DNA of 64,000 nt from positions 1-64,000 of IMG/VR virus record IMGVR_UViG_3300034356_000609; one strand, given 5' to 3'. The notes below the pieces were generated by a model that ran no database searches, was not told where the DNA came from, and was given only the letters and a program-made list of their open reading frames with translations. This DNA is from a virus. The translations under genes and the position numbers were made by a program. This document shows, piece by piece, positions 33,044-55,364 of the stretch (its first letter is position 1; every line of letters begins with the position of its first letter).

Positions 33044-33181
33044 TTATACCTTAACTGTAGTTATAATTTGATCTCCTGATTGTAATAACAAGAAGTCTCC
33101 ATCTTGCTTAGTCAACAAGCCAGTAGTTAAAACAACTGGTTTAGTGTTCCTTTTAAGGATACTTATGAATATACCAATCAT
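33044..33181 (-). CDS. 45-aa protein (MIGIFISILK...LLTKQDGDFLLLQSGDQI...)
   Basis: Manual translation; fills the gap exactly (TAATG overlap with the upstream stop). Confidence 0.65.
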   Translation of the reverse strand: MIGIFISILKRNTKPVVLTTGLLTKQDGDFLLLQSGDQIITTVKV

Positions 33182-33555: not shown

Positions 33556-36500
33556 TTAATCAGGGTCACTAAAAGAACTATCTTCTACGGGTTCTAGTTC
33601 TCTTAGTTGGCTTTTAAGAGTTCTTATCAAGTCTCTAGTGTATCTCTTTTCTCTACTTATAGATTCTTCGTAACTTTCACTCTTCTCAGCTTCAGGGATA
33701 CTCATTCCAGGCATGGCTACTTTTAATAACTTATCTAGTACTTTGCGTGACTCTTGTCCTTCCTTTGCTGCTATTTTCTTTTCTTCTTCGTAGTTACGGA
33801 TGACATAGTTCTTGTCTTGCATTTCTACCTTAGCTAGTCGTCTTTCTGCCCACTCTAAAAGATTAGTTCTAAACTCTTGTATGTTCTCGGACTTCAAAGC
33901 AGTCAAGTCGCCAGCTTCGTACTTTTCTATATTCCCTAAGTCCCTAGCCAATAAGTCTTTTTGTAATTCTTGGATCTTTTTATCGTTCTGTACATAGTCT
34001 CCCAAAGGATCTTTGAGTCCAAGCATAGGACTTAGTTTAAGTATGTCTTGTACACGTTTCTTAGGTTCGGTAAATGGCTTTAATCCTAGTTCTACTCCAT
34101 AAACTTTAAGTAAAACTGCTTGCCATCTCTGTAATCCTGCCGTTGGCTTTGGTGTATTTACCACACTCTTACCTCCTATACCACCTCTACGTTGTTCATA
34201 GTACTCTCCAAAAGGATCTGTTACGTTTTTCCAATCAAATACAGCTTCATAGATTTGGTCATAGCTTCTCATCTGTTGTCCAAACACAGTATACAAGCCA
34301 TGTTTAACTACACTAGATACACCTTCTCTATCTTCCCCTGGTTTGTCTAGAGGTCTGCGGAAGAATGTCTTATAAATATAATTACTAGGAGCTAGTATAG
34401 GATGTAAGCTGATATACTCGTCATAAGTACCCAATGCAATTAACGCAAGTAAGGATAGTACTTTATCTTCTCCGTCACCTCCTGATAGATTTGCAAGTAC
34501 CATTCCAATCAAAGAGTAAGAAAGCAAATGTAACCCCAATGCATTGCCAGTATCTCTAACTATTCTTTCGTACTTTTCTTTCTCAAGGGCAGTACTTCCC
34601 AGATTGGTTCTTTCTCTATTAGATAAGTATTGAAGCTTCCGTACGATTGCTTTACCTCCTGCCCTATAAAAACCTTCTTCTATGTTTCCAGTATATAAAC
34701 TTAGTCTTTGTTTCCCGTAGTTTGTCTGTAGTAAAGGTTGTAACCACCTTTTCATACTAAAGACAAAAGACGTGAATATATTACCCTCATAGAAAGAACG
34801 AGTTCTTGTAAAGTAGTTACCCTGTGTACTAGTGTAGAGTTCGTGTATTTGGTCTCTTAAATACTGTTCTACTTGACGTAGCTTTTCTCTTTTTACCTTA
34901 TTAGAATCTTCTAGTGACTTGATCTTTGTATCTTGTTTTTTAAGTAAGTCATTTAGAGCAATCTTTTGTGGGGTAGACAAGCGGTCATAGCTTGATACCT
35001 GTGCTGAGGATAAATAATTGTTTAGGATTTGTTGGCGTTCTACTATCAAACTCCTCATAGCATTTTGCTCCAAACCAAACACACCGTCTTTAGGCACAAG
35101 CATACCATTTATTACATCGTAAGCATCTTCTAATTTAATCTGTACTTCCTGCCCATTAACCATCATAGGTACGGTCATACGTGCCATCAATGCTTCGTAG
35201 ATGGGAATTGTAGATGCCATCTCCGTATATCCAAATATCTGAGAACTAAAGTTGTTTAGATTTATGTACTTATAGATATTACGTTGGTGTACGTTACCAG
35301 CCATTGAAGTTGGATTTGCACTAGGTACAGCTCTAAAATACATTAGTTTTAATGCATAGTCATTGTACTTACGAGAACCATTCTCTAATTGCATTAAACT
35401 TCTGTGACTTTGCATTCCCTTCCACCAAGCCTTTAACAATTCCTTACGTGTAAGACCATACTTGTTCTTAGACAACATAATCTTTAAGAAGTTATTAAAG
35501 ACGTTTTTAAACAGACGCATAAAGTTAAATACCAATGCTCTAGTCTGTGTGAACCTAAACATTCGTCTAAATACCCTAGCGGCAATCTTTAGGTATTTGT
35601 TGTCTGGATTGCTTACTTCACCTCCGTAAAAGAATCTGTTTACTTCGTTGTCAATAACTTGTAAGTCCTCCTTAGGAGTTTTTCCTTCTAGGGCTTCTCT
35701 AGCGGCAAAGATTGCAGGCATAGCTTTTTGTAAACCTTGGAACTCTGCAGCGTATACTCCATAATTAGCTAGAGATTGAGTCAACAGGTGGGATACTTGA
35801 TTGACATTTACAGGTTGTTTGTATCTAGTTTTAATTAATTGTACTTTACGACCTTTACCACGACTCTCTGCGTTCTTATTAGCTTGGATAATACTACTGT
35901 CTACTTCATCTAAAGTTTCTCCAGGTAACCCTTCCCTCCACAATAGTTTAATACTGTCAAAGAAAGTATGGAATCTCTTTTTAATGTTTGTTTCAGTTAC
36001 TCTTTCTTGACCACTTTTGACTGCGTTTGGTACTACATAACCTCTAAGTCTTTGACTTGCAGGGAGTTTTCTTTGAATGTCTTCATACAAACCTACCAAA
36101 TCTCCTACCAACGCTTTGTCTTCATTGTTTAACTTTTCGTAGTCTGGGTTATTATATTTACCGTCAGTAGTTTCTTTGGGTCTTAAATCCCCTAAGAAGT
36201 TATAGTCTTTGTTTTTGTACTCGTCTCTTACCCTAGGGATAGTCCACTCAAAGCTAGGATTTTCTTGTCTAATATATTTAGAGTCAGAAGGAATGGTCTT
36301 GGTCCAAATATATATAGGGCGTTCTGTTACATCTTCAAACTCTTCTCCCGTATCTTTATCAAATCTTTTGCGTACTATGCTAATGTGATTGGCTTTATAC
36401 CAGTCAGTGTCACGCATACGTTTATTGACTTCATTAGAATAAAGAACACTATAGTAAGCATCTATTAAATTCTTTCTGTAGATAGCAGATTTAAGGTCTG

Positions 36501-39500
36501 TTAAAGTTTGAGCTGTAGGCAACTCGTCTAATGCACTAGGGTCTGAAAAGATACCAACGTCTAAATGGTTGCCATCAGTTTCAATAAAGTGGTCTGCCAT
36601 CTTTTCAGCCTTGGTTTGCATTTCTGCAAGTAAAACTGTCTCAGTAGCGAGTTGACCTCTAATGTTTCTCTTGACACTTTCTACTACTTCGTAGTAATAG
36701 TCTGTCTTCTCTTTTGTTTGTAGTGCAAACAATCTTTTGAACAATCCTTTTAACAGAAGTTTATCTGCATCTGTCATGTTACGATTCTGGTCTGCAGCAT
36801 CCTTTAAATCTTCTATCTCATTTTCAATCTCACGGATAGTTTCACTTAACCCTAACTCAACTGCCGAACCTACTATAACTCCATCTTGGTCTCTATAACC
36901 TTTAACTGCATTAAACAACCTAGTATATGCATCGTTAATCTCTGGGCTCTCTCCATATTTAAGAAAGACTGCCTTAATCTTATCAGCAATAGTTTGTTGT
37001 AACTCAAAAAACTGAGGATCTATTTCTATTCTAGTGTTGTTCTTGAGCCAAGTAGCTAAGTTGTTTTGTGCTTCTACTAGATTTTCTTTTTCTTCAAACA
37101 ACTTACTTTGGAGTGCAGTTGTGTTTTGACCTAACGCTTCTGCATCTGCTAAGTCTGTTTCTAGAATACCAATACGAGTCTTAACCTGCTTTACAGCATC
37201 TTTACGACTTTGCTTTTCTATGTTAAACCTCTTAAGTACTGCTTCAGGAATAGTAAACTCAACAACATCAAGTTCTTTTCTTCTCTGCTTATAAGATATA
37301 ATAGATTCAGCAATATCCCTTTCTTTTGAGCCTATGGGTTTTTCTGACCCGTCCTCATTAAATATAGAACCTAATCTCTCGTATTGTCTTCTTAGGTCTC
37401 CACGTACCTTACGATCTTCTTCTGTAGAGTCAACGTCTCCAAATACGTCTATGTGTTCTTTTATCTCGTCTAGTAAGGCGGCTCTAGCTTCACGAGCTTC
37501 TTCACTTAAAAGCGATTCTGCCTGATAATACTCATCCGTGTATCTACCTACTGCATACTTTTCTTGGAAATCTCCCAATGCTTTTTCCGCTGCTAGTATA
37601 TCAGCTTCAACTCCTGCCTTTTCTGCTACTTCTAAGTTATGCTGAAGGTCAAGCAAATCAGAGTAGAACTCAGCTTCTTTGAATTTAGTGTTATAGGCTA
37701 ACTGTTTTACTTTAGTTCTTCTTCCTTGCTCGTCATAATAGATCATATCTACCTCACGAGTTAACCCTTGGTAATGTTTATCTACAGTACTAAAGGCACT
37801 TACATTCCCTCTTTGTTTGTTTCTAGCTTCTACACGACGTTCAATGGCTTCTGCTCGTGTAGTTGTATCTATACTTGAGTTCTCTGCTTCTGTTAAATGG
37901 ACATCTAAGAACTGTTTAAGTACTTGAACTACAGGGCTGCCAGAACTCGTAGCCATACCCATGTATACATTCCACATACTTCCTCCTTCATATGAAGGGT
38001 CCATACCTCTTTGTAGAAGTATTTGTATGTTCTGTGTAGTTGGCACCCAAGACAAAAAGTACTTTAAGTTTTGAATGTCTGACTCTAGGTTTTTTATCTT
38101 CTTAGCTTCATTGTTAGCTTGTGCATCTAGTAACAAAGCTTCTTTAGCAGCAAGTTCTTGATTAAGTTGACTGTCTGAAGCTTGTAGCTTTTTACTAATT
38201 AATCTAAAAGGTTCTGCAAGCTGAGAAGCTACGGGAATAATAATAGCTTTTTGAGCAGCAGTACGTAAGTTAGTACTATTGTTTTGTATTCTTTCTAACT
38301 TGGTCTGTAACTCTTTAACAACTACATCATAGTTTTCTATCTGTCTTCTGCGTTCCTGTAAGAATTCTGCCTTACCAGTTGGGTCTAACGCCAATTGGTC
38401 TTTAGTTACATTCATTACAAGTTCAGGCATCAACAAGCTATTAAAGCTTTCTACTTGCTCGTTGATTAAGTCTGATAGGTTTTTAGCATAGTTAAACAAA
38501 CGTATAGCCTCTACATCTGACATCTGGCTTAGATTGTCCTTTGTTGTTTTGACTGTTGTTTGAATCCGTTTAAGTATGTTCTCTAATGCATCTATATAAC
38601 TTACAGTAGAGTTAATAGTATCTGCTACTCCAGCACTAGATATATTGCCAAGCTTTTGTTTAATTCTTTCAATAGAGCCAAAGCGTGGATCTATCTCTGA
38701 TAAAGCTTGAGACATCTGTGCCCAACTAGAACTGTTTAAACTCTCTCGTACATAGTTTTGAAACTTACTTAAATCTATTGAAGGAGGCGTTACTGTGGCA
38801 CTACTATAGGGAGCATTGAATCTTAGTTGATGTTCTCCTGCCAGTTCAGGCATATCTTCTAAACTTTCTAAGTAATCAAAGTACTCGTTTAAAGTAACAT
38901 CTAAGTCACTTAAAGATACGTTGGTAAACTGACCCTTTAAGAATCTTTTTATAGTTGCAACAAGTCTTCCTAGTAAGCCAGTATTCTTAGCTTTCTGTTC
39001 TGCCTCTTGGAGTGTTTCTCTAAAATAAGGATTAGATAGGTACTCACTTACAAACTCTTCAGTATTCTTAAATCCGTAGTTATTCTGAAGTAAAGGAAAG
39101 TTACTTCTATATTGGGATAAATACCTATCCATCTCTTGAGAGAATTGTATCTCTGCAGGAGTTTGAGGGTTAGTCAAAGCGTGGATAGTGTATGCGTGTA
39201 ATGTCTCGTGGATAAGTTCCTTAACGAAACTTTTACTATTGAAGTCAGATGAAACCGTCTTACCTACGTATACCGTATTGGTTTTAGGGTCATAGAAAGA
39301 TCTTTGATACTCGTCTGCTACGGTAGCATCATCAAACACTACCAACTTTAAAGTTGGATTAATCCTAAGTAAGCTACTAAGTCTGGTTAAGATTTCCTTT
39401 TGGAAGTTCTCTGTCTCCCCGCTATTAACAACTCCATCGATAAGTTCTTTTAACTGTGCGTTAGAAAAGTCCTGTACGCTGTTGACTATCAAAGAAGGGA

Positions 39501-39996
39501 ACTTTACTTTGTTTAAGTATGCTTTACTTACAGGCTTTAAAGTCTTTTCAGATATAGCTGGTTTAACTGATAAATAGTATTTACCATCACGGGTTACTAC
39601 CTCACTTGTGATTAAATCATACTTAGGGTTTAGATTAATTTCTTCGTGGATAAACTCAAAGGCATTGGGATTTGTATATCCTATGTTCAAGTATCCAAGA
39701 GAAGCTACCTCTTCTATTTGTTCTGCTGACCTAATCTCTTGGTCAGTCATATTCAATCTAAGATGTTTGTTAATCTCCTGTATGCTAGGCTCTCCTACAA
39801 AGTTTAACTTAGGACTATATCCTAGTTGTTGCTTTGTCCAGTCAAAACCAAACTCTGTTTTAAATGTATTTGTAGTCAGTGCCTCATAAATACTTTTACC
39901 TTGTGCAGGTGGAAAGAATGAAGTCAACTGATAGTATGCAGGACTTGTAACTTGAAGGCCTGACAGAGGGGATTTTATGGTAGCAAAACAAGACAT
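33556..39996 (-). CDS. giant virion cargo protein with zincin-like metalloprotease domain
   Basis: 2146 aa; LIHETLHAY...EEFVSE near the N-terminus; hydrophobic helices near the C-terminus; close to the vRNAP gene as in crAss-like phages. Confidence 0.8.
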   Translation of the reverse strand: MSCFATIKSPLSGLQVTSPAYYQLTSFFPPAQGKSIYEALTTNTFKTEFGFDWTKQQLGYSPKLNFVGEPSIQEINKHLRLNMTDQEIRSAEQIEEVASLGYLNIGYTNPNAFEFIHEEINLNPKYDLITSEVVTRDGKYYLSVKPAISEKTLKPVSKAYLNKVKFPSLIVNSVQDFSNAQLKELIDGVVNSGETENFQKEILTRLSSLLRINPTLKLVVFDDATVADEYQRSFYDPKTNTVYVGKTVSSDFNSKSFVKELIHETLHAYTIHALTNPQTPAEIQFSQEMDRYLSQYRSNFPLLQNNYGFKNTEEFVSEYLSNPYFRETLQEAEQKAKNTGLLGRLVATIKRFLKGQFTNVSLSDLDVTLNEYFDYLESLEDMPELAGEHQLRFNAPYSSATVTPPSIDLSKFQNYVRESLNSSSWAQMSQALSEIDPRFGSIERIKQKLGNISSAGVADTINSTVSYIDALENILKRIQTTVKTTKDNLSQMSDVEAIRLFNYAKNLSDLINEQVESFNSLLMPELVMNVTKDQLALDPTGKAEFLQERRRQIENYDVVVKELQTKLERIQNNSTNLRTAAQKAIIIPVASQLAEPFRLISKKLQASDSQLNQELAAKEALLLDAQANNEAKKIKNLESDIQNLKYFLSWVPTTQNIQILLQRGMDPSYEGGSMWNVYMGMATSSGSPVVQVLKQFLDVHLTEAENSSIDTTTRAEAIERRVEARNKQRGNVSAFSTVDKHYQGLTREVDMIYYDEQGRRTKVKQLAYNTKFKEAEFYSDLLDLQHNLEVAEKAGVEADILAAEKALGDFQEKYAVGRYTDEYYQAESLLSEEAREARAALLDEIKEHIDVFGDVDSTEEDRKVRGDLRRQYERLGSIFNEDGSEKPIGSKERDIAESIISYKQRRKELDVVEFTIPEAVLKRFNIEKQSRKDAVKQVKTRIGILETDLADAEALGQNTTALQSKLFEEKENLVEAQNNLATWLKNNTRIEIDPQFFELQQTIADKIKAVFLKYGESPEINDAYTRLFNAVKGYRDQDGVIVGSAVELGLSETIREIENEIEDLKDAADQNRNMTDADKLLLKGLFKRLFALQTKEKTDYYYEVVESVKRNIRGQLATETVLLAEMQTKAEKMADHFIETDGNHLDVGIFSDPSALDELPTAQTLTDLKSAIYRKNLIDAYYSVLYSNEVNKRMRDTDWYKANHISIVRKRFDKDTGEEFEDVTERPIYIWTKTIPSDSKYIRQENPSFEWTIPRVRDEYKNKDYNFLGDLRPKETTDGKYNNPDYEKLNNEDKALVGDLVGLYEDIQRKLPASQRLRGYVVPNAVKSGQERVTETNIKKRFHTFFDSIKLLWREGLPGETLDEVDSSIIQANKNAESRGKGRKVQLIKTRYKQPVNVNQVSHLLTQSLANYGVYAAEFQGLQKAMPAIFAAREALEGKTPKEDLQVIDNEVNRFFYGGEVSNPDNKYLKIAARVFRRMFRFTQTRALVFNFMRLFKNVFNNFLKIMLSKNKYGLTRKELLKAWWKGMQSHRSLMQLENGSRKYNDYALKLMYFRAVPSANPTSMAGNVHQRNIYKYINLNNFSSQIFGYTEMASTIPIYEALMARMTVPMMVNGQEVQIKLEDAYDVINGMLVPKDGVFGLEQNAMRSLIVERQQILNNYLSSAQVSSYDRLSTPQKIALNDLLKKQDTKIKSLEDSNKVKREKLRQVEQYLRDQIHELYTSTQGNYFTRTRSFYEGNIFTSFVFSMKRWLQPLLQTNYGKQRLSLYTGNIEEGFYRAGGKAIVRKLQYLSNRERTNLGSTALEKEKYERIVRDTGNALGLHLLSYSLIGMVLANLSGGDGEDKVLSLLALIALGTYDEYISLHPILAPSNYIYKTFFRRPLDKPGEDREGVSSVVKHGLYTVFGQQMRSYDQIYEAVFDWKNVTDPFGEYYEQRRGGIGGKSVVNTPKPTAGLQRWQAVLLKVYGVELGLKPFTEPKKRVQDILKLSPMLGLKDPLGDYVQNDKKIQELQKDLLARDLGNIEKYEAGDLTALKSENIQEFRTNLLEWAERRLAKVEMQDKNYVIRNYEEEKKIAAKEGQESRKVLDKLLKVAMPGMSIPEAEKSESYEESISREKRYTRDLIRTLKSQLRELEPVEDSSFSDPD

Positions 39997-40002
39997 TATT
40001 TA

Positions 40003-40032
40003 CAAATTTAATCTATTTAAGAACTAAATCAA
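40003..40032 (-). promoter_or_regulatory. Bacteroidota sigma70 promoter TTG-N19-TAAATTTG
   Basis: Exact consensus and spacing; 6 nt before the ATG at 39996. Confidence 0.75.
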
Positions 40033-40640
40033 GGTACTTCACAACTCACCTCTTCAAAGCTAATGCTATTGAGGTCTGGAGTATCTGGGGCACTTGTTTT
40101 ATCTAGAGACAAAGTAAGCTGTAGAGGCTGCTGTCTTAAAGGAGCTTCGTATACTTGAGTATCAGGTATCTGAACAGATGTTTCCATTACTTCAAATAAA
40201 CTATCCTCTAAGTCGTTTAACTCCTGTAAAGCTAAAGCGGCATCGTCTTTGTAAAAACCTTCAGGTCTATAACTCACAGGTAACTCAAAAGCTTCTTGTA
40301 AAGATACTTCTTCAAACTTAACTTGATATGCGGCCAATAACTTAGGTGTAATGTATACTTGGATAGCAGCACCATCAGTATAACTACGACCTCCAAAAAC
40401 AACTCCAAATAACTTTCTTGGTATGTTTAACTCATTAGATATAGCAACTGCCGTACTGTCTGCAATACTACGTACTTTCTTAACTGTATTCATACTAGCA
40501 TCCCTAGAGTTTACTGGGAGAAATATCTCTCCTGTACCCAGTAGTTTAAATGCATTATTTTTTGTCTTAGCAATCGTAACTGCCTTAGGAGTTATCTGAC
40601 TGCTAATTTCTCTAGCTGATATTTTACATGCTTGTGCCAT
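40029..40640 (-). CDS. 203-aa protein within the cargo block (Cys at both ends)
   Basis: ORF MAQAC...SCEVP. Confidence 0.8.
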   Translation of the reverse strand: MAQACKISAREISSQITPKAVTIAKTKNNAFKLLGTGEIFLPVNSRDASMNTVKKVRSIADSTAVAISNELNIPRKLFGVVFGGRSYTDGAAIQVYITPKLLAAYQVKFEEVSLQEAFELPVSYRPEGFYKDDAALALQELNDLEDSLFEVMETSVQIPDTQVYEAPLRQQPLQLTLSLDKTSAPDTPDLNSISFEEVSCEVP

Positions 40641-40644
40641 AGTC

Positions 40645-43600
40645 TTATCCGCAAGGATTTATATTAGGTAAGTTATTAATATCGTTTTGGTTAGGATTTG
40701 TAGATGGTTGAGTAATAGGTTTATTTACTACTTCAAACTCTATAGCATAAGGATATTGACCTACATTTTTATCAGTTACAGATTTTACCCATCCTTCTTT
40801 TTGCCAGGTAGCATCTTGATATTCTTGTGTAAATGGAGTAACTTTAGTAATTCTAGTATATACTTGTCTTCCTGTTTTATCAGTCATTCTTATAACTTTA
40901 CCTACAAGATCTGATATTTTAGATAAACCATAATCCTTAGACATTCTTTGTATGTCAGTATTAGCTCTGGTAGTTCTAGTTCTATCCCCTGATATAATAA
41001 GATCCATAGTAGACTTTCCTTTAAACTGAGGTTGCATTTGACCGCCTTGACCATCTGCAAAGTTTTGTGCTATAGGTGTTAGTTTATCTGCTAGGTTAAA
41101 TTCATCAACACTAGTAGCTGGTTGAATAGTCTCGGTAGGCATACTTTCAGGTGAGTATACACTACGTTCTATTGCAATCAAACTCTTAATGGCCGAGTCT
41201 TGTAACCTCATGGTTTTTAACTTCTCTGGGTTTGTTCTGGCTAAGAACTCGATGCTTGTAGTTATAGGGGATAGTGTAGTACTAAACATCTTAGTAGAGT
41301 ATCTTACGAGAGTCAAATAGGACTTGAACTTTTGCGGCTCTTCCTTCCTCATTGTCTCTAGTTCATTGTAAGACTTTGTTGTGTAGTCTATATAAGCTTC
41401 ATGAGGTACGATACTAGATACATTGTCTGTGTTGAAGTGACCTCCGTATTGCATAAAAGATCCCAATGCCAAATCAGTAAAGAACTCTTTTATCTCAGCA
41501 ATAGGACTGTTTAGTCCTTCTAAGAATGCAGTCCTATATAACTTGTTGGTCTCCGACATAACGACACTCTTTAACTTAAAGTTTATCTCACCAGTATTAC
41601 TTGTCTCTGGATACAAGTTCTGTACTAGATAATTATTCCTTAAATCAGGATTACTGATTATACCCTCAAAACGTTTTGCAAGGTTGTTAGAAGTGGTCTT
41701 TTGCATTAGACCGTCTTTACCTCTATAGTATTCTAACAAATTGCCCTTTTCGTTACTAGCTGTTTTTTGGGTATAGTTAAAGATTAGATTTGTCTTTAAC
41801 CTTTTAATAGCCTTCATACGAAGTTCTTGACCTGTTATATCATTCTTAGTTAAGAAAGTATTTATAGTCTCATGAACTTCCACAGAGTCAGACAATGGAT
41901 ATATTTGACCCATAACCTCTTGTACAAATCCGCTTACATTAAACTGCGCCAATGCAGATTGATTAAACATAAAGTCAATTGCCTCTGCGTTAAAGTATTC
42001 TTTTAATCCTCCCTCTTTGGCAACCGTCTCCGTACTTTGGAATGAAGTTCTATAATTCGTAGTATTAAAGTCAGTAATGCTAGTCAACTCCCTCAACCCA
42101 CTTTGCTGTGCTACAACTACACCAAACTGTAATAAATAGGCAATATCCCTCATTGCCTTCTCTTCACCAGTCAATGTCTCATTAGGATTAAAATTAGTAA
42201 TGTATTGATTCAAAGTAGGTACACCCATCATCGCTTCAATATACATAGCTAGCTTTTTCTTAGATCCTTTGATGTTAGCTGCTTTAATTTCTTTGTCTAT
42301 ACCTGCAACAAACTTTTCTAGCTTTACATTCCCTGAAGTCTGAACTCGGTTTTTAATAAGAGACATAATAGCTGAGTTCTTACTGACGTATAAGTTCTCC
42401 ATCTTCTTATGTATCTCTGCTCTGTTAGCCATGCTTAGAGCTAGTTTAATTACATCTGAGTTGATGAAGTCCAATACATCTTTTACAGGAGTACCTGCAA
42501 GAATCATAGCATGTGCCAATGGACTAGTCTCTTGGTTTAAACCTAAAAGAATAATCCAATCTTCGTTTGCAATGTCGACGTGTCCGTTTACAAACTCACT
42601 CAATACTTTAGAGATACGATTCGTTCCATCTGCGTCTTTCTTGCCTCCAAGCATTATCTGACCCTCAGCATTTCTGTTGGCCTTAAAGTAATAGGCATTA
42701 AACAAACTAGAAGTATACTTTAGTCCTGCCCTTTGGAATTCTTTCTGTAGAGTATTAATCTTAGCGTCAATACCCAATGCATCTTTAGATAGGATATTTT
42801 CCAAGAAAATTCTCCAAGATGTTCTAGGATTAAACACATCGGTAGAACTAATCTTCTTTCCAGGTTTAGTATACTGGGTAAGAATGCTGTTGTTGTTTGG
42901 AGTAGTTAAAGAATCATACAACTCTCCTGTCTTTAGAATGGATTTTAAACTATCTACAAGTCCATTGCCTAATGCTTTTTTATAGTCGTCAACTACGGCA
43001 ATTTCATTTCTTATATCTTTTATGTCATTGCGTACTTCTGCTAAAATAAACAAAGCCTCCATAGGGTTTTCTCTATCTAGTTTTGCAAGTTCTGCAAACT
43101 TTCTAGCTATTAGTTTCTTTTCTTTTCTAATATCTAACAAAGTCTCTGACTCTTCTTGACCTACAATCTCATTAACCAGCAACTCCTTAATGCCTTCAAT
43201 TGCTTCGTCAATCTCCTCGTTGAGTATGTTTATCTCATCTTTGATGTCTTTGCGTTGTTCGTAGATAGGATTCTCACTCATCTCTGCACGCATCTCTTTT
43301 TGAATAGCTTTTAACCTAGAGAGACTTATCTTAAGTTCTTTTTGACGAGACAACTCGCTGGTATAGTCTTCTACGTCAAACTCTTTTTTAATTACTTCTC
43401 CCGACTCTGATAAGGCCGTCATAAAGAATGTTAACTTATCAATGTCGTAGTCACCTCCTGTTTTAGTTACTATCTGTGCAGGAAGAATCATTACTGCACC
43501 TGCGGATTCGTCAAGAAACTCCCGAACAATAGCATACTCCATAGAAGAAAATCCTTGTACTGGAATACGTACACCAACCATAGTTAATTTGTCCTTGTGA

Positions 43601-46600
43601 AGTTCTTTCCAACTATTAGCCGTTTCCGTAGAAGAAGTAAGAATACTATTTAATACCTGTAAAGAGCCGACCTTCTTACCCTCGTAAGTCAAGTTAAGTA
43701 GTCCTGCATGCTTCTTAGGGTTAAATGCAATCTTAACCTCCATAGGATTTGTTTCTCCTGTAGTGGGGTTGAGGGTATAAAACTTTAAGTCGTTCGCTCC
43801 AAACTGTTCTAACTGTTGTTGAGTAGGGTTAGCAAATCGGATTCTCTCAAATCCAGTACCAGCTACTTGGATAAAGCTTTCTCCAAATATCTTTTGAGAA
43901 ATAACTTTGTTGTTGAAAATGTTTAATATAAGAGCCTCTACCTCATCTCTGTCTTTGTTCGCATCCAAAGGATTTACAAAGTTACCTTGCTCATCTACCT
44001 TAATAAAGTTACGTAGTCCTTCAGAAACTTCTTTCTCCTCGAATTGTTCTGCAACATATCTAGCCAACTGAAGTTGATTAATACCGTCAATCTGTCCGTT
44101 AGTTCTAGTTATACCTAACTTCTTTTCTAGTTTGATAACTTCAAACTGTACCAAGTTGTTTAAGTTATTAGTGAACTCATTGTACAATCCTGATATACGT
44201 TCCTGGGTGTCAAGACTAAAGTCTCCAGAGAGTTCTCCAAACTCATAGAAGTCTCCAAAGATTAACTTCATCATCTGAGTTGCAAGTGTACTTTCATCCT
44301 TATACTTAGGAGCTTGATATTGCTGTTCTCTTAAGTTTTCTATATGGAGTGTAGTAACTAAACTGTCGTCTATGTTTTGTTTTACTTCTAAGTACTCTAC
44401 TCCGTTACGTGTTACCTTTTCGTAATAATCGCTTGGTTCAGCATTGTCAGACATCTTAGAGCCAGACTTGAATGTATAATAGTTTACTTGCGTATTATAC
44501 ATGGCTATCATTTGCTTTTCCATTTGTCTCCCTTCTACTACACTAGGTATCATAGGTATTAGAGAAAACTTATGTAATGCTACTTGTTTTGGGTCTCTCT
44601 CTGTAGGTCCAAAGTGTCCTAGCTTCAAAGGAGGAAAAGGAGTCAAACCAGTAGTGTTAATTAACTTGGTCTTTTCTGATATTAATTCTTGTGCATTAGC
44701 AGGGTTGCCCTTTAGTGCAACATTAATTTCTGCAATACGTACTTGCTGTTGGTAAGCCTTCTCTTGTTTAGTACTGTCCCATCTACCTATACTTATTAAA
44801 TAATTTCTATAAAAGTCAAGTGTAACTACACCTTGAGCATCTGCTTCCTTAGGATTGTTTACGTAAGCGTCAAACTCGGACTTCTCTTCTTCTAAGAGTG
44901 TATCCCAATTACCACTATCGTAAACCTTTTTGTAGGTTTCAAAATCACTCTTACTAAAACTAAGTACATCCTTATAGATTACAGTACGGATAACAGGATT
45001 AAACTTATTCTCAACTCCTGTGTAAGCTATACTAATAGCATCTTGTCCTGTATCGGTATCAAAGAAGTCTTGTAAGGCACTATCCCAGAATACTGGACTA
45101 CCAGGTGATGCTGAGAATGCAGGTCTCTTAAACAACTCTCTATAGTCTGCCTTAACATTAAAGTTAGACATATCACCAATAAAGAACTTCAAGAACTCTA
45201 CGTTATTAATAAAAGCATTCTTCAGCATTACTTGTGCTAAGTACTGAAGATTCTGACTTGTAATTGTAGGAGGTGTTTTTCTGTCGGCAGCTGGAAGTAA
45301 CTGAGCATTAATCATATTTAATTTACTTAAATATGATGCAGTTTGTGCAAGACGTGTACTGTAGTCTACTGTATAACCCTGAGAATTTACAGGAGTTGAC
45401 ATAATATCTACCAACTCTCTAGTGAATAACTCACCTTGAGTTGCAAAGTAAGTACTTAAAGATTGTGGCAAAGCTGCTACAGCCTTATGGTAACCTGCTA
45501 TTAGTTCTTCTTTTGTGGTAGCTTTTGTAATCTCTTCTACAATCTCATTGGGAAGAATGTCATTAAAAATAAATAGATTCTTAGCGTTTTTATTATAAGT
45601 AGTTTTTGCTACACCCTCACCAGCTTCAATTGCATTAGATATCCTTGTGACTTCTGAGACTAAGTAGTTCTTAAACGTAGCCACCAACTCAGGTTCTATA
45701 GGCACTTCTTCCGTGGGAGATTTAAGAAGATTTACATTGATAGGTACATAAATCTTCTCTGCTAGAATAGGATTAGAAAAACTTGTGCTTAAAGAAGAAG
45801 TCTTATCTCCAAAGCGCATATTCTCTAATTCTGTAGATTGGAAGAAACTTACAAAGTCTTGGATAATTTTATCTCCAGGATGTAAATTGGTTGTATGACC
45901 TCCGTAGTTATCAGAGTCAAAGTCTTTAAGTTCTAAACCTCCGAAGTCAGTTACATTGATTGTACGTGGTCCTGTAGTCTTGTCTACGACTTTAGTATAA
46001 CTACTTAATGGATTCTTTTCTATCTCTGCCTTAGTTAATGGCAATCCAAACAAACGGTTTAACCAAATAGATCCTAGTATGTCTGGATTCTTTCTATAGT
46101 CAAAACGAGCATAGGCAGGTTGGCTTATTAGTTCTTCGTAGTTATTAGCTTTGTTTACTGCGGAAGCTTGCTGAGTCATAAAAGACCAAGGGGAACGTAT
46201 GAACTTTTTCTTCTGCTCTGCCGTTGTATACGCTGTAGGTCTAGATGCTACGTCAAAGTTTGAAAAGAACTTAGTAAAAGGATTTAACTCTGTCTCCTTC
46301 TTCTGTAAATAAGAAGTAGCTTGTTGTAGACTGTAAGTTACAACTTTACTATTGACTGCCTTTTTAAGAGCTTGAGATATACTGCTTACGTCAATTCTCC
46401 AATCCTTAAACGAAGCTGTCTGTGTACCTGCAAGTCTTGCTTCGATATAACTCTCAAACAAAGGTTCTTGAAGTGAAGACACCTCGTAACCTCTGTCTTT
46501 AATGTATTTAAGTGCCTCTTCTTTAGTTGTAGAAAAGGCGATAATCTTTTCAAACAAGTCGTCAGCTTCTGCGAGCTCTGTTGGACTCATACTTGCTTGT

Positions 46601-48249
46601 CCTGTCTTAGTAATATCTAAAGTTCTAGATATCTGTCTACCATTGGGAAATGTACGTACGTCAGTGCCGATGATATAAGTAAGAGGTTTATAAATCTTAA
46701 TCTGATCTGCAGGGTTTAAGTTAGCATTAATCGCAGCAGTTACACGTAACTTTTGGAAGATGGTTGTTAACTGTGAAAGGTTATCAACTATAAACTTTGT
46801 AGTTAAGTCTCTGTTGTTGGGGTTTAGGTAATCTTGATTGGTTAATCCTAGTCCAATGTCTTGTAGAAAAGTCAACAAAGCCGACAAGCGGTTGTCTGTC
46901 ATATACAAGTTCATGTCACTTTTCTTAGCTAACCCAGAAGCTATGTTCTTAAAAGTTTGTTCGTAGTCTTTAACTAACGCATCTACGTTTAAGTATTGTT
47001 CTCCACTCTCGTCTATAAGTTTATACTTTGGCCTATACAAAAAGTACTGTGCATCATATTGACCTAGAATATTGCGTACGTTCTGGAATCCTTTTTTCTG
47101 CAACGTAGTTGCAATCATTCCATTATCCTTAATCGAGATATCAACTACGTTAGAAACTACCTCAGGATTGCTTAGAATACCTTTAAAGGCAGATACTAAC
47201 ACCATCTTCTTGACATCTTTGGTAGATCCTTTAACTCTAGGGTCTGGCATATCTTGAAGTAAGTAGTTAAACTGAGGATACTGCTTAGAAAGATTGAGCA
47301 TAATGTCATACATCTCCGTGTAAGTAGTCTTACCTGACAATGCATTACTTAGGATTTTCCAGTTCTTTAAGAAATCTCCACTCTTTGGAAGTCCCAATAA
47401 ATTACCTTCTAGTTGAATAGCATTACCACTACGTACTAATCCCCCCTCTACCTCATTAGACAGTGAGTTTCTATACGAAGGTAAACCTGTTACTAAGGCA
47501 ATAACAGCACTACCTGCTCTTTGGATTTGTGACTTTTCTTTTGTCTTCCAATCCTCACTATCCTCGTTCTTTGACTCTAAATCTTCAACCCCTACAATAC
47601 CTTCTTGAGAAGAATACCAATCTACAAACAAATCAAAGTTCTGAAGAACTTTTTCTAAGTTTACAATCTTTACAATATCTCCCTCAAAGGTTTTGTTTTC
47701 TTGGAATCTTGATAGTATCTCGTTTCTCTTATCAGTCAAAGCGGTAAATACTGAGTACCAGTTTTTACCGTAACCTAATAGGAACTGAAATGTATCGTAA
47801 ATCTCTTGTGCTTCTTCTGGTGCATAATGTATAGGAGTTACATTTCCGTCAATCTCAGCTTCTAAGAAGTTGATAGCCATACTACTAGGAGTATTGATAG
47901 CCGCTTTGGTACGTTCTTGTAATTCCCTAACACGTTGCTTTTGTTTCTCTACGTAGTCAACTACCTGATCAACAGAATATCTACCTTCGGCATCAGCAAT
48001 ATACTGGCTCTTAAAATTAACAAAGAAAGTCCGAGCTACTAACTCTAGTGCAGTCTTTCTATTACCTTCTGTAATTGGATGTGCAAGTAAAGCTCCGTAC
48101 AGAGGATTGTCAATTACCTCGTCTCCAACTTTAATCTTATCCAAAGGTTGTTCATTGTTCTGTGTCCATACATAGGCCACAGCTGAAGGGTCTAGAAACT
48201 CTAAGTATTCTTTCTCGTAATTAGTACCTTTAATGCTACAAGCGTTCAT
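40645..48249 (-). CDS. virion-packaged single-chain two-barrel RNA polymerase (phi14:2 gp66-like) with C-terminal ASCH-like domain
   Basis: Catalytic GGDYDIDK (DYDID at 43438-43452), upstream RIPVQG, ADAQG, LHKFS, SGSK; 2534 aa. Confidence 0.9.
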   Translation of the reverse strand: MNACSIKGTNYEKEYLEFLDPSAVAYVWTQNNEQPLDKIKVGDEVIDNPLYGALLAHPITEGNRKTALELVARTFFVNFKSQYIADAEGRYSVDQVVDYVEKQKQRVRELQERTKAAINTPSSMAINFLEAEIDGNVTPIHYAPEEAQEIYDTFQFLLGYGKNWYSVFTALTDKRNEILSRFQENKTFEGDIVKIVNLEKVLQNFDLFVDWYSSQEGIVGVEDLESKNEDSEDWKTKEKSQIQRAGSAVIALVTGLPSYRNSLSNEVEGGLVRSGNAIQLEGNLLGLPKSGDFLKNWKILSNALSGKTTYTEMYDIMLNLSKQYPQFNYLLQDMPDPRVKGSTKDVKKMVLVSAFKGILSNPEVVSNVVDISIKDNGMIATTLQKKGFQNVRNILGQYDAQYFLYRPKYKLIDESGEQYLNVDALVKDYEQTFKNIASGLAKKSDMNLYMTDNRLSALLTFLQDIGLGLTNQDYLNPNNRDLTTKFIVDNLSQLTTIFQKLRVTAAINANLNPADQIKIYKPLTYIIGTDVRTFPNGRQISRTLDITKTGQASMSPTELAEADDLFEKIIAFSTTKEEALKYIKDRGYEVSSLQEPLFESYIEARLAGTQTASFKDWRIDVSSISQALKKAVNSKVVTYSLQQATSYLQKKETELNPFTKFFSNFDVASRPTAYTTAEQKKKFIRSPWSFMTQQASAVNKANNYEELISQPAYARFDYRKNPDILGSIWLNRLFGLPLTKAEIEKNPLSSYTKVVDKTTGPRTINVTDFGGLELKDFDSDNYGGHTTNLHPGDKIIQDFVSFFQSTELENMRFGDKTSSLSTSFSNPILAEKIYVPINVNLLKSPTEEVPIEPELVATFKNYLVSEVTRISNAIEAGEGVAKTTYNKNAKNLFIFNDILPNEIVEEITKATTKEELIAGYHKAVAALPQSLSTYFATQGELFTRELVDIMSTPVNSQGYTVDYSTRLAQTASYLSKLNMINAQLLPAADRKTPPTITSQNLQYLAQVMLKNAFINNVEFLKFFIGDMSNFNVKADYRELFKRPAFSASPGSPVFWDSALQDFFDTDTGQDAISIAYTGVENKFNPVIRTVIYKDVLSFSKSDFETYKKVYDSGNWDTLLEEEKSEFDAYVNNPKEADAQGVVTLDFYRNYLISIGRWDSTKQEKAYQQQVRIAEINVALKGNPANAQELISEKTKLINTTGLTPFPPLKLGHFGPTERDPKQVALHKFSLIPMIPSVVEGRQMEKQMIAMYNTQVNYYTFKSGSKMSDNAEPSDYYEKVTRNGVEYLEVKQNIDDSLVTTLHIENLREQQYQAPKYKDESTLATQMMKLIFGDFYEFGELSGDFSLDTQERISGLYNEFTNNLNNLVQFEVIKLEKKLGITRTNGQIDGINQLQLARYVAEQFEEKEVSEGLRNFIKVDEQGNFVNPLDANKDRDEVEALILNIFNNKVISQKIFGESFIQVAGTGFERIRFANPTQQQLEQFGANDLKFYTLNPTTGETNPMEVKIAFNPKKHAGLLNLTYEGKKVGSLQVLNSILTSSTETANSWKELHKDKLTMVGVRIPVQGFSSMEYAIVREFLDESAGAVMILPAQIVTKTGGDYDIDKLTFFMTALSESGEVIKKEFDVEDYTSELSRQKELKISLSRLKAIQKEMRAEMSENPIYEQRKDIKDEINILNEEIDEAIEGIKELLVNEIVGQEESETLLDIRKEKKLIARKFAELAKLDRENPMEALFILAEVRNDIKDIRNEIAVVDDYKKALGNGLVDSLKSILKTGELYDSLTTPNNNSILTQYTKPGKKISSTDVFNPRTSWRIFLENILSKDALGIDAKINTLQKEFQRAGLKYTSSLFNAYYFKANRNAEGQIMLGGKKDADGTNRISKVLSEFVNGHVDIANEDWIILLGLNQETSPLAHAMILAGTPVKDVLDFINSDVIKLALSMANRAEIHKKMENLYVSKNSAIMSLIKNRVQTSGNVKLEKFVAGIDKEIKAANIKGSKKKLAMYIEAMMGVPTLNQYITNFNPNETLTGEEKAMRDIAYLLQFGVVVAQQSGLRELTSITDFNTTNYRTSFQSTETVAKEGGLKEYFNAEAIDFMFNQSALAQFNVSGFVQEVMGQIYPLSDSVEVHETINTFLTKNDITGQELRMKAIKRLKTNLIFNYTQKTASNEKGNLLEYYRGKDGLMQKTTSNNLAKRFEGIISNPDLRNNYLVQNLYPETSNTGEINFKLKSVVMSETNKLYRTAFLEGLNSPIAEIKEFFTDLALGSFMQYGGHFNTDNVSSIVPHEAYIDYTTKSYNELETMRKEEPQKFKSYLTLVRYSTKMFSTTLSPITTSIEFLARTNPEKLKTMRLQDSAIKSLIAIERSVYSPESMPTETIQPATSVDEFNLADKLTPIAQNFADGQGGQMQPQFKGKSTMDLIISGDRTRTTRANTDIQRMSKDYGLSKISDLVGKVIRMTDKTGRQVYTRITKVTPFTQEYQDATWQKEGWVKSVTDKNVGQYPYAIEFEVVNKPITQPSTNPNQNDINNLPNINPCG

Positions 48250-48251
48250 CT

Positions 48252-51200
48252 TTATGTGCAGGGTTTAGGATTAATACTATCTGCGGTTTTATCTCCGTTT
48301 CCTAAGCTAGTTCTACCTAACTCAGAGTTAATATCAATGCCTAGCGAAGATAACACATTTAATGTGCTTTGTGAATTTGCTCCTCCTAGTTCAGGTATAT
48401 TTTCTGTAATAGCATCTATACTAGTAGGTTGTGTAGGAGCAGGTTGAACAGCTACTTGCTCTTGAGGAGTATTTGTTCTTGCGTTAATCTGCTTGATGAC
48501 TTGGAAGTCATAACCTAAACTAATAATGGTATCTGAAATAGGGCTCTTATGCTTCTCTATAACAGGTGCTTTGTTAGATGCTAGAGTTAATCCTTTTATT
48601 GTTATAACTCCTGGCTTAACAAATAAGCTTCCTTCGTTTTCGTTTAAGTAGTTATGTATAGCTAAGAAAGTCTTACTATCGTACTTACTAAACTTTGGAT
48701 TCTTACCATTCCACATAGATTTGATAAACCATCCATTAGTAGCAAACCCCGTAATAGGAGTCCACTCACCCTCAGACTCTGCTCCAGTACCTGTGCCTGT
48801 TGATTTATATACTAGGAAATGTTCTCCTCCTGCAAATACATCTACGATTCTACGGCCTGATACTTCTGCACGGAAACTACCAATAGTCCAAGGTGCACTT
48901 TCTTTATCAAGTTTTTGTCCCAAGTCAAATAGTTTCTGAGTCTCTGCATTTACTAAGGATGCTGAACCACTTGAGCCATCTATCTTTTGATTTATCCAAG
49001 GATTAAATATACTTGGTTTGTTTTGTGCGTCTTGTGTAACTACTACTTCTACATTACTACCTACTGTTTTAGGGTTGTTTTGTACTCCAGGTATCTGTGG
49101 TGCTTTAGGTTGCCTAGATGTATCAGGGATACTACTCTCTTCATACTCTGAGGCAAATGCTAGAATGTTGATTGTTTTAGGAGACAAATCAAAGTCTTCA
49201 CTAAGTATAGAGTAAGTCGATTGTTGGGTGCTCCATTTAGATACTGCCGAAGGGTATCTAGGATTCATCAAGTACATGCTATCAGTAAACTTCTGTAGTG
49301 TGTTAAACTTCTTGTTCTTGAAGTCAATAATGTGAGTGTTGCCTTCCGTATCTACCGCTACAATATCCATCGCCCCTGCTACTCCGAAGTATCCTGTAGC
49401 ATCTTTTTCTTCTTGAGTAAACTCACGATGTACAATTAAACCTTCTGTAAATACTTTCCATCCCTTGTCTTCAAATTCTTTTGCTACTGATTGCATCTCT
49501 GCTACCAAAGCATCAAACTGTTCTTGAGTTACTTCTAACTCATAGCCCTGCTTGTCTCTTAGAGGTTTGTTCATCTGACGTACTTCTTTTAAGTAATCGT
49601 CAAGTTTTTTAACTGGTTTACCTCCTAAGATGTCACGACCTAAAATATCGACAAAGTTTCCTACAGCTGCACCCATCTCCATGTTACGTACGCTGTCTTC
49701 TGTATTTACTTTCTTTTCTCCAAGTACTCTTTGAACAAAAGCCGACTGACGTTCATATCTATTGCCGTTAATTACATAACCTTCCTTGCTAGGATCACCT
49801 ATGGCTTTTGACTCTGTAATCAGTTTTTCTAACGCAGCCACTGTGTTTGCTTGAGTTTTCTCAGTAGGCATTGCTATTTGTTCTTTTACTTTAACTGCTT
49901 CTTTCTGAACACTAGCAGTAGGATAGGCTAGAGTAGGAATGATGTCAGAGTTATTGAACTCTATCACATATCCAGAGTTCTGTTGAATTGTTTGTTCAGG
50001 ATTATTTGGATCTTCAATAGTCTTTATTTCTTGGGCATAAGGAATACTTACCAAAGACACTTCGTGCTTTACTCTGCCTCCTACTAGTATTTGTTTTCTC
50101 AAAGAGTCAAACTGTTGGTCTACTGGGGTAGGGTTTGCTTTCCCTTTAGATGTAGGTAGGTATAAAAACAAACTGCTCTTACCATTACTGTCTTTGTTAC
50201 CCTCAGTGTCAAACTTTTGAATCTTACCCGACCCATCGATAGTAGCAAATACCAATGTATTAATAGCACTGAAAGTAATAGGGTTAGAACCAATCTTAGG
50301 GTAAACTAAACCGTTTATCTTGTCCTTAGTAGGATCGGCTTGTAACCACAAGTTTGTTGTAGTTACACTTCCGTCAGATTCTATGACACTCTTACCATTT
50401 TTAACTAAAAGTAATAACTTACCCTCTTTGAATTGCACCACGGCTTCTCCAAACTTACGACCATCTGCCATTTGTACAGATACCTTACGGCCTCGATTTA
50501 ATGCCATCAATTCCTCTATGGTAGCGTTCTCTTTAATCTTGTCCACTTGGCTTACATCAGCTACTGATACTTTGTCTATCATCTGTGTAGAGAAGATATA
50601 ATCTCTTACACTAGCCTTCATAAAGGTTACAGGGATTAATCTCTTAAACTTCTCATAGAGTTCTACCATTTTCTCATCAGACAAAGTGGGAGTAGATTGT
50701 ATCTCGTTGAATATGTCTTCTATCTCTCTGAGAACTTCTGTGCCTAACACCTCTTCAATTACAGTAAACATATCGACAAGTACTGGCTTAGTCTTGGAAG
50801 GTTCTTTAGTAATTGATTTGATAATCTTTTCTTGTGCTTGAAAGTAAGGATTGTTACCTTTTGCCTCAAAGAAAAGAGGAGAGGTAGAACTCACATTAGA
50901 TGTCTGTGCAAGGGTAGACTTCTGTTCTTCAGTAACTGCAGGTTCTAAAGTAACCGCAGGTTCTACAATAGGAAGTACAACTACCTCAGTTACAACTTCT
51001 TCTGGAACTGTTGCATCTATTGTTGTCTCCACTACTGCCTCTATAGGAGTTACTCCTAAGTTAACTTGAGTTGCTTTATCTGCCTTACCGATAAACTTAC
51101 TTGTAAAATCCCCTACGATGTCAAGCATGTCAAACATGTGAGTACCTGTATCTTCCATTATAGGCATACCTTTACCTACAGTATCCATTAGGTTTAATGT

Positions 51201-54200
51201 CTCTTGGATGTTTTCTGCAGATTCACCAGCGGCTTGCATTACTGCAGCCATCTTAGCTTTAGCAGAGTCAAGTGATGCTGAGTTTGCCACATCTACGAGT
51301 AAACCATTTATTAGTTTGGTTCTAGCATTGCTGTATTCCTGTTGATCAACAAAAGTCCCTAAGATAGAACTACCTGTAAAATCTATTGGACTTTCCTCTA
51401 ACTGCTTAATGCTTTCTTCAAACGCAACAGTTACATCTTCAGGCAATAACTCAGGAGCAGTAAATGTTACTCCTGCTTCTTCTATAGTTACTTCTTCTCT
51501 AGTCTCAACTTGCTCTTGGGTAGCTTTAACATCGCTAATGTATTTGTTTATCTTGTCGGCATTCTGAGCAACAAACTCTATGAATCTAAACTTATCGTAA
51601 AAGATTTCTTGTTCAAATGCTTGATCGCCTGTCAGCAATCTAGAGACAGCTTGAAACTTCATAGCAACATTATCCATTAAGGACTCTTGCTGTTCGATAC
51701 TAACATTACCTTTAGCAATCGTATTTAAAACCGCCTCGTTTAAGATAGTGTTTATCTTTTCCTTACGTTCTGTTAAATCGTCATGCTCGTTCTTAATAAC
51801 TGCTAGAACCTCAGTAAGTTCTTCAAACTGCTCTTCACTTAAATCCTTCAAAGAACTATAACGTTTGATTGGATCTGTCTCTTCTTCTCCTTCTTTCTCT
51901 GCTTCTAGTGTACTTGCAGTTTTAGTTTTAGCGTTAAGGTTCTCAAGAAAGTTTTCTATTACCGCCTCTGAGTCTTTGTCTAGGTTTTCTAAGTGTCGGT
52001 CTAAATCTCCACTTAAAAACATGTACAACTCTTTACCTCTATCAGGACTCATCATTGCCTGAACTAAAGAATCTTCTAGTTCTTCTATTGTATCAAAACC
52101 TCCGATAGAAGTCGCGGGTACTTTATTCTCTAATTGATCTACAATAGGGTTGTATGTTCCATCCTCAAATGCTCTCTCTTGTGCTACAACTCTATCAGTT
52201 TTAATCTGTGCTAGATTGTCTCTATATCTTCTTAAACTTTCTACAAAGTATTCAGGTCTTTGATTTACACGAGCCTCTGCTGTCAACTGTTCTATCTGAG
52301 CTGACATGTTTTCTAGATTCTCAGAATCTAATCCTCTAGATAAATTAACTTTATTGTCTATATTTTTATCTAGAACTGCTTTCTTATCAGCAGCAGTCAT
52401 CTGACCATAAAAGTCAGATCTTTCTTTATAGTTATTAATTGTTCTACTTGCTTCCTCTGCCTGATTAATTAAATCTTCTCTTTGAGCTTCTGTGTATTGA
52501 GTAGCACCAGCATCTGCAAGTTTCTTTTCTATGTCTTGCTTCTTTAATACTTTTTCAAAGTAGTCAAACTGCATAATAGGGTCACTCATCAAATCATCCA
52601 AAGTTTCAATCTCCTTGTTAGTTTGAAAGTTTCTTAGATTCTTGATTCCGTTTTGTTGCTCTATAGTTTCTAACTCTTGAATCTTAGCAATAGCAACAGA
52701 GGCTTGCTGTGGAGTAAGGTTGCCTGCTTTTAGTTCAGTATTAATTTTATTTTTATAATACTGACTATTCATCATAATATCAAACAACTGCCCTGTCTTA
52801 CGATTCTTTTCGTAGTTTGATACTTGTGTCCCTAAACCAATTGGAGGTCCTAGGAATGCACCAGAGAAAGCATTTACGATGTCTTGGGTTTCTAGTTCTC
52901 TAGGAGCTTCTCCTTTCATTGCTGCCACACCCATATGATTGTCAGCAAAGTAGTTCATTAGTTCAGCCGTTACTTCTTCAAGACCTTCTTCTATTCCTCT
53001 TTTAGCTACGAATCTAGCACCTGCACCAAGCTTACCTAAGTTTGATAATGATTGAGTTGCTAAGTAGTCTAGGGTCTTGCCAGAAAATGTCTTTCCAAAA
53101 ACATCTCCATACAAGGTTCTATACTGTTGGAGACTACCTGTCCACTTGTTCTTGTTGAAACCTTTTACTTCGAAGTCATCTAAGTACTTCATATCAGGAA
53201 ATATGTTCTCTGTAATGACTTCTATTCCAGTAGTCAAAGCAGCAATAGTGTGGGCTTTCCCTCTAGCGTCTTTAATTCCCTTTTGATATAACTCGTTGTA
53301 AGTAGCTGCAAACTGTTGTGGATATACTAAGGCTCCCATAGACATTGCACTTGGTATTCTATCTGCCAATGCTCTTACTAAGCCATTACTACTCTGAGAT
53401 ACAGTAGACCTTAGTGCTTGTCCGTAACTACCTGTAGCTGTTAATACTTTATTAAATTGTCCAGCTCTTTGAGCACTCATCAACCCCCTAGCAGTTAAAC
53501 TGTTGAGACTGGACTTCAATGCTCTACCTCCTAAACCTGTAACTCCTGCACCTCCATATACGGTTGCTATCACCAACGGTGTTGTCTCTGCACCTGTATA
53601 TAACAAAGATGTTGGTTGAAACTTCTGATTGCCTTCACCATCTACAAAATAAAAGTCCATTCCTGTTTGGAACTCCCCTTTATTATTCTGTATATCAAAG
53701 TTTATCAACTCTCTAGGAGAGACGTAATTACTTATACGTCTACTTGTAGTTGCTAACGCATCCCAACCTGTAACTATACCTAAGCCTTCAGTTATATTAG
53801 TTCCTAATTTAACAACCGCAGAACTTAAATACCCAGCAGTCTTAGCTGCAACAGCCATTCCTTTCTCTAATCCACTTAGTTCTCCTGAGTAGTATAACTT
53901 ACTTTCTTTGAGAATTGCTTCTTGCTCCTCTAGATAAGAACCTGCAAAGTTTTTAATAGACGCATCTTTCTTCATAGCATCATAGCTATAAACTTCGTTT
54001 GTCTTACCTATTAACTTTTGATATACTTCTAGTTCCTTCTTAGAGGAATTAAACTGCTGTTCTACTTTCTTGTATTCCTCAGGACTTAAGTTTGCTTTCT
54101 TACTAGTGTTGATTAAATCCTCTTGTTTGCGAACCACCGTAAGAGCTGCACTACTTAATTGGTTACTTATAGATTCCCCCAATTGTTGGTAGGCATTTAT

Positions 54201-55364: not shown

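Follow-up and report, generated by a model that had tools for sequence, protein, structure and literature searches.

Terminal cysteines at the gene junctions of a putative crAss-like RNA polymerase cargo block: candidate clasps between separately encoded cargo proteins

How a crassvirus packs at least three giant proteins, counts them and ejects them through a narrow tail, in which order they exit and how they are activated, is the problem raised by a block of genes in the IMG/VR virus record IMGVR_UViG_3300034356_000609. We analysed positions 1–64,000 of this record, and this whole 64,000-nucleotide (nt) stretch is called the window. Four genes on its minus strand encode the proteins P2370, P2534, P203 and P2146, of which P2534 is a candidate virion RNA polymerase (vRNAP). 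The relations among three RNA polymerase (RNAP)-associated proteins have been named as needing study (Bayfield 2023; 2026 N4 paper). In the window, a script count over the four proteins, 7253 amino acids (aa) in sum, gave only six Cys; all of them (6/6) point to internal junctions, and the outer ends of the chain have none. The evidence set out below makes it very likely that these residues form junction clasps of some kind, and probable that the Cys pairs are inter-protein disulfide tethers.

The original prediction had listed six Cys, each at most five residues from a terminus, on both sides of the three internal junctions and at neither outer end. The script recount and a codon check reproduce this, no further internal Cys emerged in the four cargo proteins, and the coordinates given for the six codons agree with the DNA. 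In the list, A1 is a 22-sequence alignment of vRNAP and A3 a 17-sequence alignment of P2146:

48252..55364, minus strand, P2370 (2370 aa), first chain member, with Cys2369 as sole Cys and without N-terminal Cys
48258..48260, minus strand, codon of Cys2369 of P2370, tail ...NPKPCT, from the codon check
40645..48249, minus strand, vRNAP P2534 (2534 aa), with Cys4 and Cys2533 only
48238..48240, minus strand, codon of Cys4 of vRNAP, head MNACSIKG, invariant in A1
40651..40653, minus strand, codon of Cys2533 of vRNAP, tail ...NINPCG, invariant in A1
40029..40640, minus strand, P203 (203 aa), candidate two-ended adaptor, with Cys5 and Cys200
40626..40628, minus strand, codon of Cys5 of P203, head MAQACKIS, from the codon check
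40041..40043, minus strand, codon of Cys200 of P203, C-terminus ...SCEVP, from the codon check
33556..39996, minus strand, P2146 (2146 aa), last chain member, with Cys3 only and without C-terminal Cys
39988..39990, minus strand, codon of Cys3 of P2146, head MSCFATIK, invariant in A3

This pattern is far beyond chance. If six Cys were scattered uniformly, the probability that none of them would lie more than five residues from a terminus is ~2e-14, and at the Cys frequency of the replication module of the window (1.89%) the four cargo proteins would be expected to contain ~137 Cys.

Which proteins carry these residues? A tblastn search with the 2534-aa protein matched solely crAss-like and Flavobacterium phage polymerases (21–27% identity), BLAST was positive to phi14:2 g066, crAss001 gp50 and FpV4 gp32, and the profile of A1 matched phi14:2 gp66 (PDB 6VR4, chain 6VR4_A) with an E value of 3.9e-16. 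By homology we identify it as a crAss-type virion RNA polymerase. P2146 matches phi14:2 g065 by BLAST (E 4e-13), and its N-terminal model gave weak Foldseek matches to the zincin fold. For P2370 the BLAST matches are short and weak (crAss001 gp47, E 1e-5; phi14:2 g067, E 0.004), and P203 has no family, a sequence search leading to five close clusters only. Neither for the four cargo proteins nor for the adjoining late open reading frames (ORFs) did Pfam return a meaningful match, and PHROGs gave none for any of six late proteins. Two motifs are invariant among the relatives aligned:

43438..43452, minus strand, DxDxD catalytic motif of vRNAP (D1600, D1602 and D1604), invariant in A1
39196..39210, minus strand, HExxH zincin motif of P2146 (H263, E264 and H267), invariant in A3

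The best explanation is that the four genes are the RNAP-associated cargo block of a distant lake-water crAss-like phage, the DNA of which is present in ~20 lake-water metagenome runs. P2370 would then be the g067-like member, vRNAP the gp66-like polymerase, P2146 the g065-like zincin protein and P203 a lineage-specific adaptor. Mass spectrometry has found the cargo proteins in virions of phi14:2 and crAss001, and the four proteins are most likely packed and injected by the phage.

Does the arrangement extend beyond the window? Nearly all of 78 vRNAP homologues (2300–4400 aa, identity down to 21%) carry one Cys at position 3–6 and one at -1 to -7; internal Cys are absent from about two thirds of them and number 1–5 in the remainder. 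In 80 IMG/VR loci we set the cargo block without using Cys, as the span from the first to the last ORF of at least 1000 aa, and counted a junction pair where a Cys lay at most 12 residues from the end on both sides. Such a pair stands at 120 of 131 junctions. Internal Cys amount to 0.15 per 1000 aa in cargo proteins versus 2.8 per 1000 in adjoining ORFs, only 8% of which have a Cys near a given terminus. Chains of two, three, four and five genes all obey the rule, the first member being without N-terminal and the last without C-terminal Cys, and the pattern was the same in another 80 loci, taken around the last protein. The rule also holds in the cultured phages phi14:2, crAss001 and FpV4, and in Kolpuevirus; in phi14:2, g067 (C1797), g066 (C3 and C2179) and g065 (C3) make a perfect three-member chain. 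The junction-pair rule is general in the relatives.

The original prediction had proposed to compare Cys positions with gene junctions in relatives, including those with split, fused or inserted genes, and the two do go together: beside the pairs at most junctions, fusions have lost the pair and splits have acquired one. Where one gene encodes the first protein and vRNAP as a fusion, the former junction is without Cys, as in FpV4 gp32 (4287 aa) and the 4000–4900-aa giants of loci L022, L038, L049, L060, L066, L068 and L069. One ORF of 5002 aa (L036:4664-19672) is apparently a fusion of the first protein and vRNAP, possibly of more; it has internal Cys at 2130 and 2533 and no terminal Cys, and the rest of this locus contains no further plus-strand ORF of at least 150 aa. 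A split protein in L035 (583 + 1852 aa) aligns over its full length with its unsplit counterpart in L032 (2352 aa), and has Cys at -3 and 4 where L032 has none. The same gain of a pair at the break is seen in L074 (396 + 1953 aa) compared to the unsplit protein of L071 (2444 aa). ORFs for GIY-YIG homing endonucleases, with several Cys each, lie inside cargo junctions at L021:12361-13050, L024:10024-10641 and L074:16087-16680. Since the flanking cargo fragments carry the Cys pair, this suggests that endonuclease insertion drives gene splits which are later bridged at the protein level.

Rearranged genomes keep the rule as well, also where the genes have ceased to be neighbours. In crAss001 the Cys are C2339 of gp47, C5 and C2404 of gp50, and C5 of gp49. 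Both here and in Kolpuevirus the gene of the first protein lies on the opposite strand, and this protein still has a C-terminal Cys only, while vRNAP has both Cys and the zincin-side protein the N-terminal one only. Gene order is therefore not essential. The idea that the termini link head to tail in gene order thus stands as far as the pairing at junctions, splits and fusions is concerned, but does not depend on the gene order itself.

The same data bear on the reading that the terminal Cys serve each protein singly, as packaging or processing signal, lipidation site or redox sensor, the junction pattern being a by-product of operon structure or translational coupling. Coupling is tight at most junctions (gap of -4 to +5 nt at more than half of them), as this reading would have it. 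However, the rule survives a first gene on the other strand, gaps extend to a maximum of 86 nt, the Cys position varies from 3–6 at heads and from -1 to -27 at tails, both codons are used (TGT 213 and TGC 45 across the 80 loci), and Cys are absent from the outer ends. Moreover, heads such as MSC fit neither a signal peptide nor a lipobox, and Pfam shows no intein (Hint) domain, so that we find a role for each protein singly very hard to credit. Since both Cys codons are in use, selection acts on the residue, and the varying gaps and strands add to this to exclude a DNA-level signal. Three narrower candidates were also rejected: a DNA-level or translational-coupling explanation, by the opposite-strand first genes, variable gaps and both codons; a lipoprotein, by the heads just mentioned; and a split intein or trans-splicing, by the lack of a Hint-domain Pfam match and by the mostly 0–6 residues beyond the Cys, which are too short for intein halves.

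If the residues act in pairs, which termini pair with each other? An answer comes from the ends themselves, as these appear to be portable:

40032..40223, minus strand, portable C-terminal tail of P203 (~residues 140–203, ending FEEVSCEVP), homologous to the vRNAP C-tail in adaptor-less relatives

L175, L179, L190, F195, E197 and C200 are invariant in this tail. When tail type and downstream adaptor were compared on IMG/VR loci, in three clades the protein immediately before the last one, be it vRNAP or the adaptor, ended in one type of tail: vRNAP ends in NINPCG, EVDPC or DPFKC before an adaptor, and in FEExxCE directly before the last protein. Because it ends in the ~60-aa tail found on vRNAP itself in relatives without adaptor, P203 by homology behaves as a two-ended adaptor, which bears out what the original prediction had supposed of it. 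Another Cys-tipped adaptor of 328 aa lies between vRNAP and the last protein at L017:16918-17904 (also in L015 and L142–L146) and contains an ART-PolyVal ADP-ribosyltransferase domain (PF18760); this adaptor would add an effector module to the chain. Its first ~90 residues are common to the last protein of other phages, so head modules move too.

These tail types speak against an intra-protein pairing, in which the middle proteins would cyclise N-to-C and the first and last would pair together, leaving no linear chain. The Cys count alone, two per middle protein and one each in the first and last, is compatible with such cyclisation. Yet the tail type of vRNAP tracks the downstream neighbour and not its own constant head in the three clades, and new pairs at gene splits restore connectivity only with junction pairing. 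Furthermore, in the cyanopodophage A4 (Anabaena phage A-4L), where cryo-electron microscopy shows a disulfide between Cys1715 of gp27 and Cys5 of gp26 (PNAS 2025; PMC12002296), the bond is an inter-protein one. Cyclisation is thus highly improbable. Taken together, fusions, splits, rearrangements and portable ends point to selection at the protein level, on junction pairs, and the sequence evidence strongly supports a pairing between the C-terminal Cys of one cargo protein and the N-terminal Cys of the cargo protein that follows.

Most of the 11 junctions without a pair are ORF-calling or assembly artefacts. The start codon was miscalled in L012, the tail Cys is located at -19 to -27 in L014, L018 and L043, GIY-YIG endonuclease genes are inserted in L021, L024 and L074 with the pair kept on the flanking fragments, and in L038 the downstream gene is outside the block. 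L079 has a frameshift-like break with a GTGA stop/start overlap in the -1 frame (L079:11100-11420). Every apparent outer-end Cys is in a locus cut by the contig end or by the length threshold. The second locus set adds two Cys-less breaks, in L131 (L131:4545-6100) and L140 (L140:4393-4514), and Rfam found no intron in the 205-nt gap of L131.

By which chemistry would the junctions be closed? The comparative data indicate a junction clasp and not its chemistry, which leaves room for joint binding of a metal ion (Zn, Fe or Cu) by the terminal thiols, or for other thiol chemistry (thioether, thioester), with tail and head still clasped. Tail Cys are often flanked by acidic residues (FEEVSCEV, EEDTCEIV), which are possible metal ligands. 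On the other hand, a metal is poorly held by two thiolates alone, neither a His nor a second Cys is conserved in the heads and tails, and the sole solved case of the same pattern, A4, is a disulfide, so that we regard a metal ion or other thiol chemistry as unlikely. In the A-4L record, gp27 (1717 aa) has one Cys, 1715 (-3), and gp26 (1114 aa) one Cys, 5. Since these two proteins with the same Cys pattern were seen disulfide-bonded, a disulfide is the most likely bond at the junctions of the window. In agreement with this, crAss001 virions contain structural disulfides.

We propose that each cargo protein carries a short flexible Cys-tipped tail, a Cys-tipped head, or both, and that the tail would dock on the head of the next protein. 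Once the particle reaches an oxidising setting, the two thiols would join as an inter-protein disulfide, and the product would be a single linear thread P2370-vRNAP-P203-P2146, a post-translational equivalent of the fused polyproteins of relatives. All other Cys have been purged, which would prevent mis-pairing and leave the thread unfoldable for tail passage; reduction in the host cytoplasm would then free the parts. Structure prediction fits docking of a tail on a head: the AlphaFold model of P2146 places Cys3 at the start of an N-terminal beta-hairpin within a folded domain, and disorder with short strands is predicted for the tail of P203, in a model (predicted local distance difference test score, pLDDT, 61) that combines a small alpha/beta core with a low-confidence C-tail. 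The presence of the disulfide in crAss-like virions, its timing and the order of pairing are presumed in this scheme, and roles of the thread in co-packaging, stoichiometry, ejection order and release would follow from it.

Several points weigh against this proposal. The disulfide in crAss-like phages is read from sequence and from the analogy with A4, and no gene for a thiol or sulfhydryl oxidase or a thioredoxin-like protein was found among the 20 window proteins scanned. The breaks without Cys pair in L079, L131 and L140 could be real exceptions or else result from frameshift or assembly errors, and some gut relatives contain several internal Cys, e.g. five in the vRNAP of Kolpuevirus. In the window, the head of vRNAP (MNACSIKG) resembles that of P203 (MAQACKIS), and the tail of P2370 (NPKPCT) that of vRNAP (NINPCG; 48238-48260 and 40626-40653). 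Since the two heads are of one type and the two tails of one type, visible motifs do not appear to fix the pairing order in the window, and cross-pairing would be possible. Finally, the published accounts consulted on crAss001, phi14:2, DEV and N4 make no mention of terminal Cys in crAss cargo proteins. As a separate observation, the adaptor junction in the window looks like a duplicate of the first junction.

If the proposal is true, a covalent head-to-tail thread would explain a 1:1 stoichiometry and co-packaging from one targeting signal. It would also account for an exit in fixed order, for split and fused forms being equivalent, and for the extreme purging of Cys from the interior of the proteins. 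The rule also offers a simple way to annotate cargo chains and their members in metagenomic phages without detectable homology. A more general scheme, which we put forward tentatively and hold to be somewhat less probable than not, is a modular Cys-clasp connector of crAss-like phages and, by convergence or distant descent, of A4-like cyanophages. Here a portable tail of ~60 aa and a head of ~50–100 aa, with one Cys each, would string cargo or effector modules from separate genes (vRNAP, zincin protein, ART-PolyVal toxins, small adaptors), in any number, into one ejectable thread, breaks made by homing endonucleases would be healed by a new clasp, chain order would be ejection order, and the reducing cytoplasm would be the release trigger.

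The remaining late-side ORFs of the window have no Cys at all in 4633 aa; these, by Cys count, are the seven Cys-free ORFs of 1467, 433, 100, 553, 958, 651 and 471 aa:

23792-28195, plus strand, Cys-free late-side ORF region
31740-33483, minus strand, Cys-free late-side ORF region
55380-63567, minus strand, Cys-free late-side ORF region

Tail proteins of crAss001 and phi14:2, in contrast, contain Cys, and those of crAss001 also disulfides. In other phages (loci L154–L165), the zincin-bearing protein (~1600–2500 aa, at some loci truncated by the locus end) lacks terminal Cys and, apart from a single residue in L160, any Cys; the upstream neighbours are likewise Cys-free. Cys suppression is therefore wider than the clasp. 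A close variant of the window is a 68-kb IMG/VR contig (locus L086), the P2146 of which differs at 13 residues (L086:6001-12441 versus window 33556-39996); one difference, F1879C, is an internal Cys in a population variant. In a lake-metagenome strain with 24 differences over 8.5 kb the six Cys codons are identical, a divergence too small to weigh. On the replication and lysis side, the window encodes:

1305-2456, RNA ligase
14807-15424, NinG-like protein
15427-17430, family A DNA polymerase
29166-29744, non-specific endonuclease
30301-30720, holin

How does the arrangement compare with known systems? The original prediction knew of no such system, and our full-text literature search found no description of the rule in Crassvirales, but the gp27-gp26 link of A4 is published (PMC12002296). 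In A4 these are consecutive pre-ejectosome genes, with a lone C-terminal and then a lone N-terminal Cys as in the window, and the C-terminal helix of gp27 is docked in a cleft of gp26 (PMC12002296). Unlike the window, A4 has a single link, with neither an RNA polymerase nor an adaptor in the chain, and its other virion proteins do contain Cys; the disulfide was regarded as stabilising locally, not as an instance of a rule (PMC12002296). BLAST(P) of gp27 and gp26 against the window proteins gave no significant similarity, and no A4 chain was among the Foldseek matches of the N-terminal model of P2146. Due to this lack of sequence similarity, we take A4 as a precedent for the mechanism only, and not as a sign that the proteins belong to one family.

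In the Schitoviridae, the ejected proteins N4 gp50-52 and DEV gp71-73, including the giant vRNAP, are almost Cys-free, which was attributed to unfolded passage through the periplasm (PMC11445570). These ejection proteins have no terminal Cys, whereas the four cargo proteins of the window have six conserved ones; near-absence of Cys including the termini, as in Schitoviridae, is not what these four proteins show, since they lack internal Cys only. In addition, N-terminal domain, core and C-terminal domain are one polypeptide in Schitoviridae, while the crAss-like parts are separate and Cys-tipped. Split inteins also rejoin the products of split genes, with homing endonucleases involved, but Pfam showed no Hint domain in the cargo proteins.

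Counterparts of the block are phi14:2 g067-g066-g065 and crAss001 gp47-gp50-gp49, with a homologous polymerase and zincin protein, a first protein of probably the same type and the same terminal-Cys rule. They share only 20–25% identity with the window, which has the extra 203-aa Cys-tipped adaptor, and belong to genomes of ~100 kb compared to ~68 kb for the phage of the window. The fused polyproteins (FpV4 gp32; the 5002-aa protein of L036) present the same domains in the same order as one covalent thread, and a fusion of the three proteins in some phages is described in the Drobysheva preprint. Their bond is a peptide bond made by the ribosome, with no Cys at the junctions, and release would need proteolysis. 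What the window adds to these systems is a clean chain of four members, one of them a two-ended adaptor, together with a late module free of Cys.

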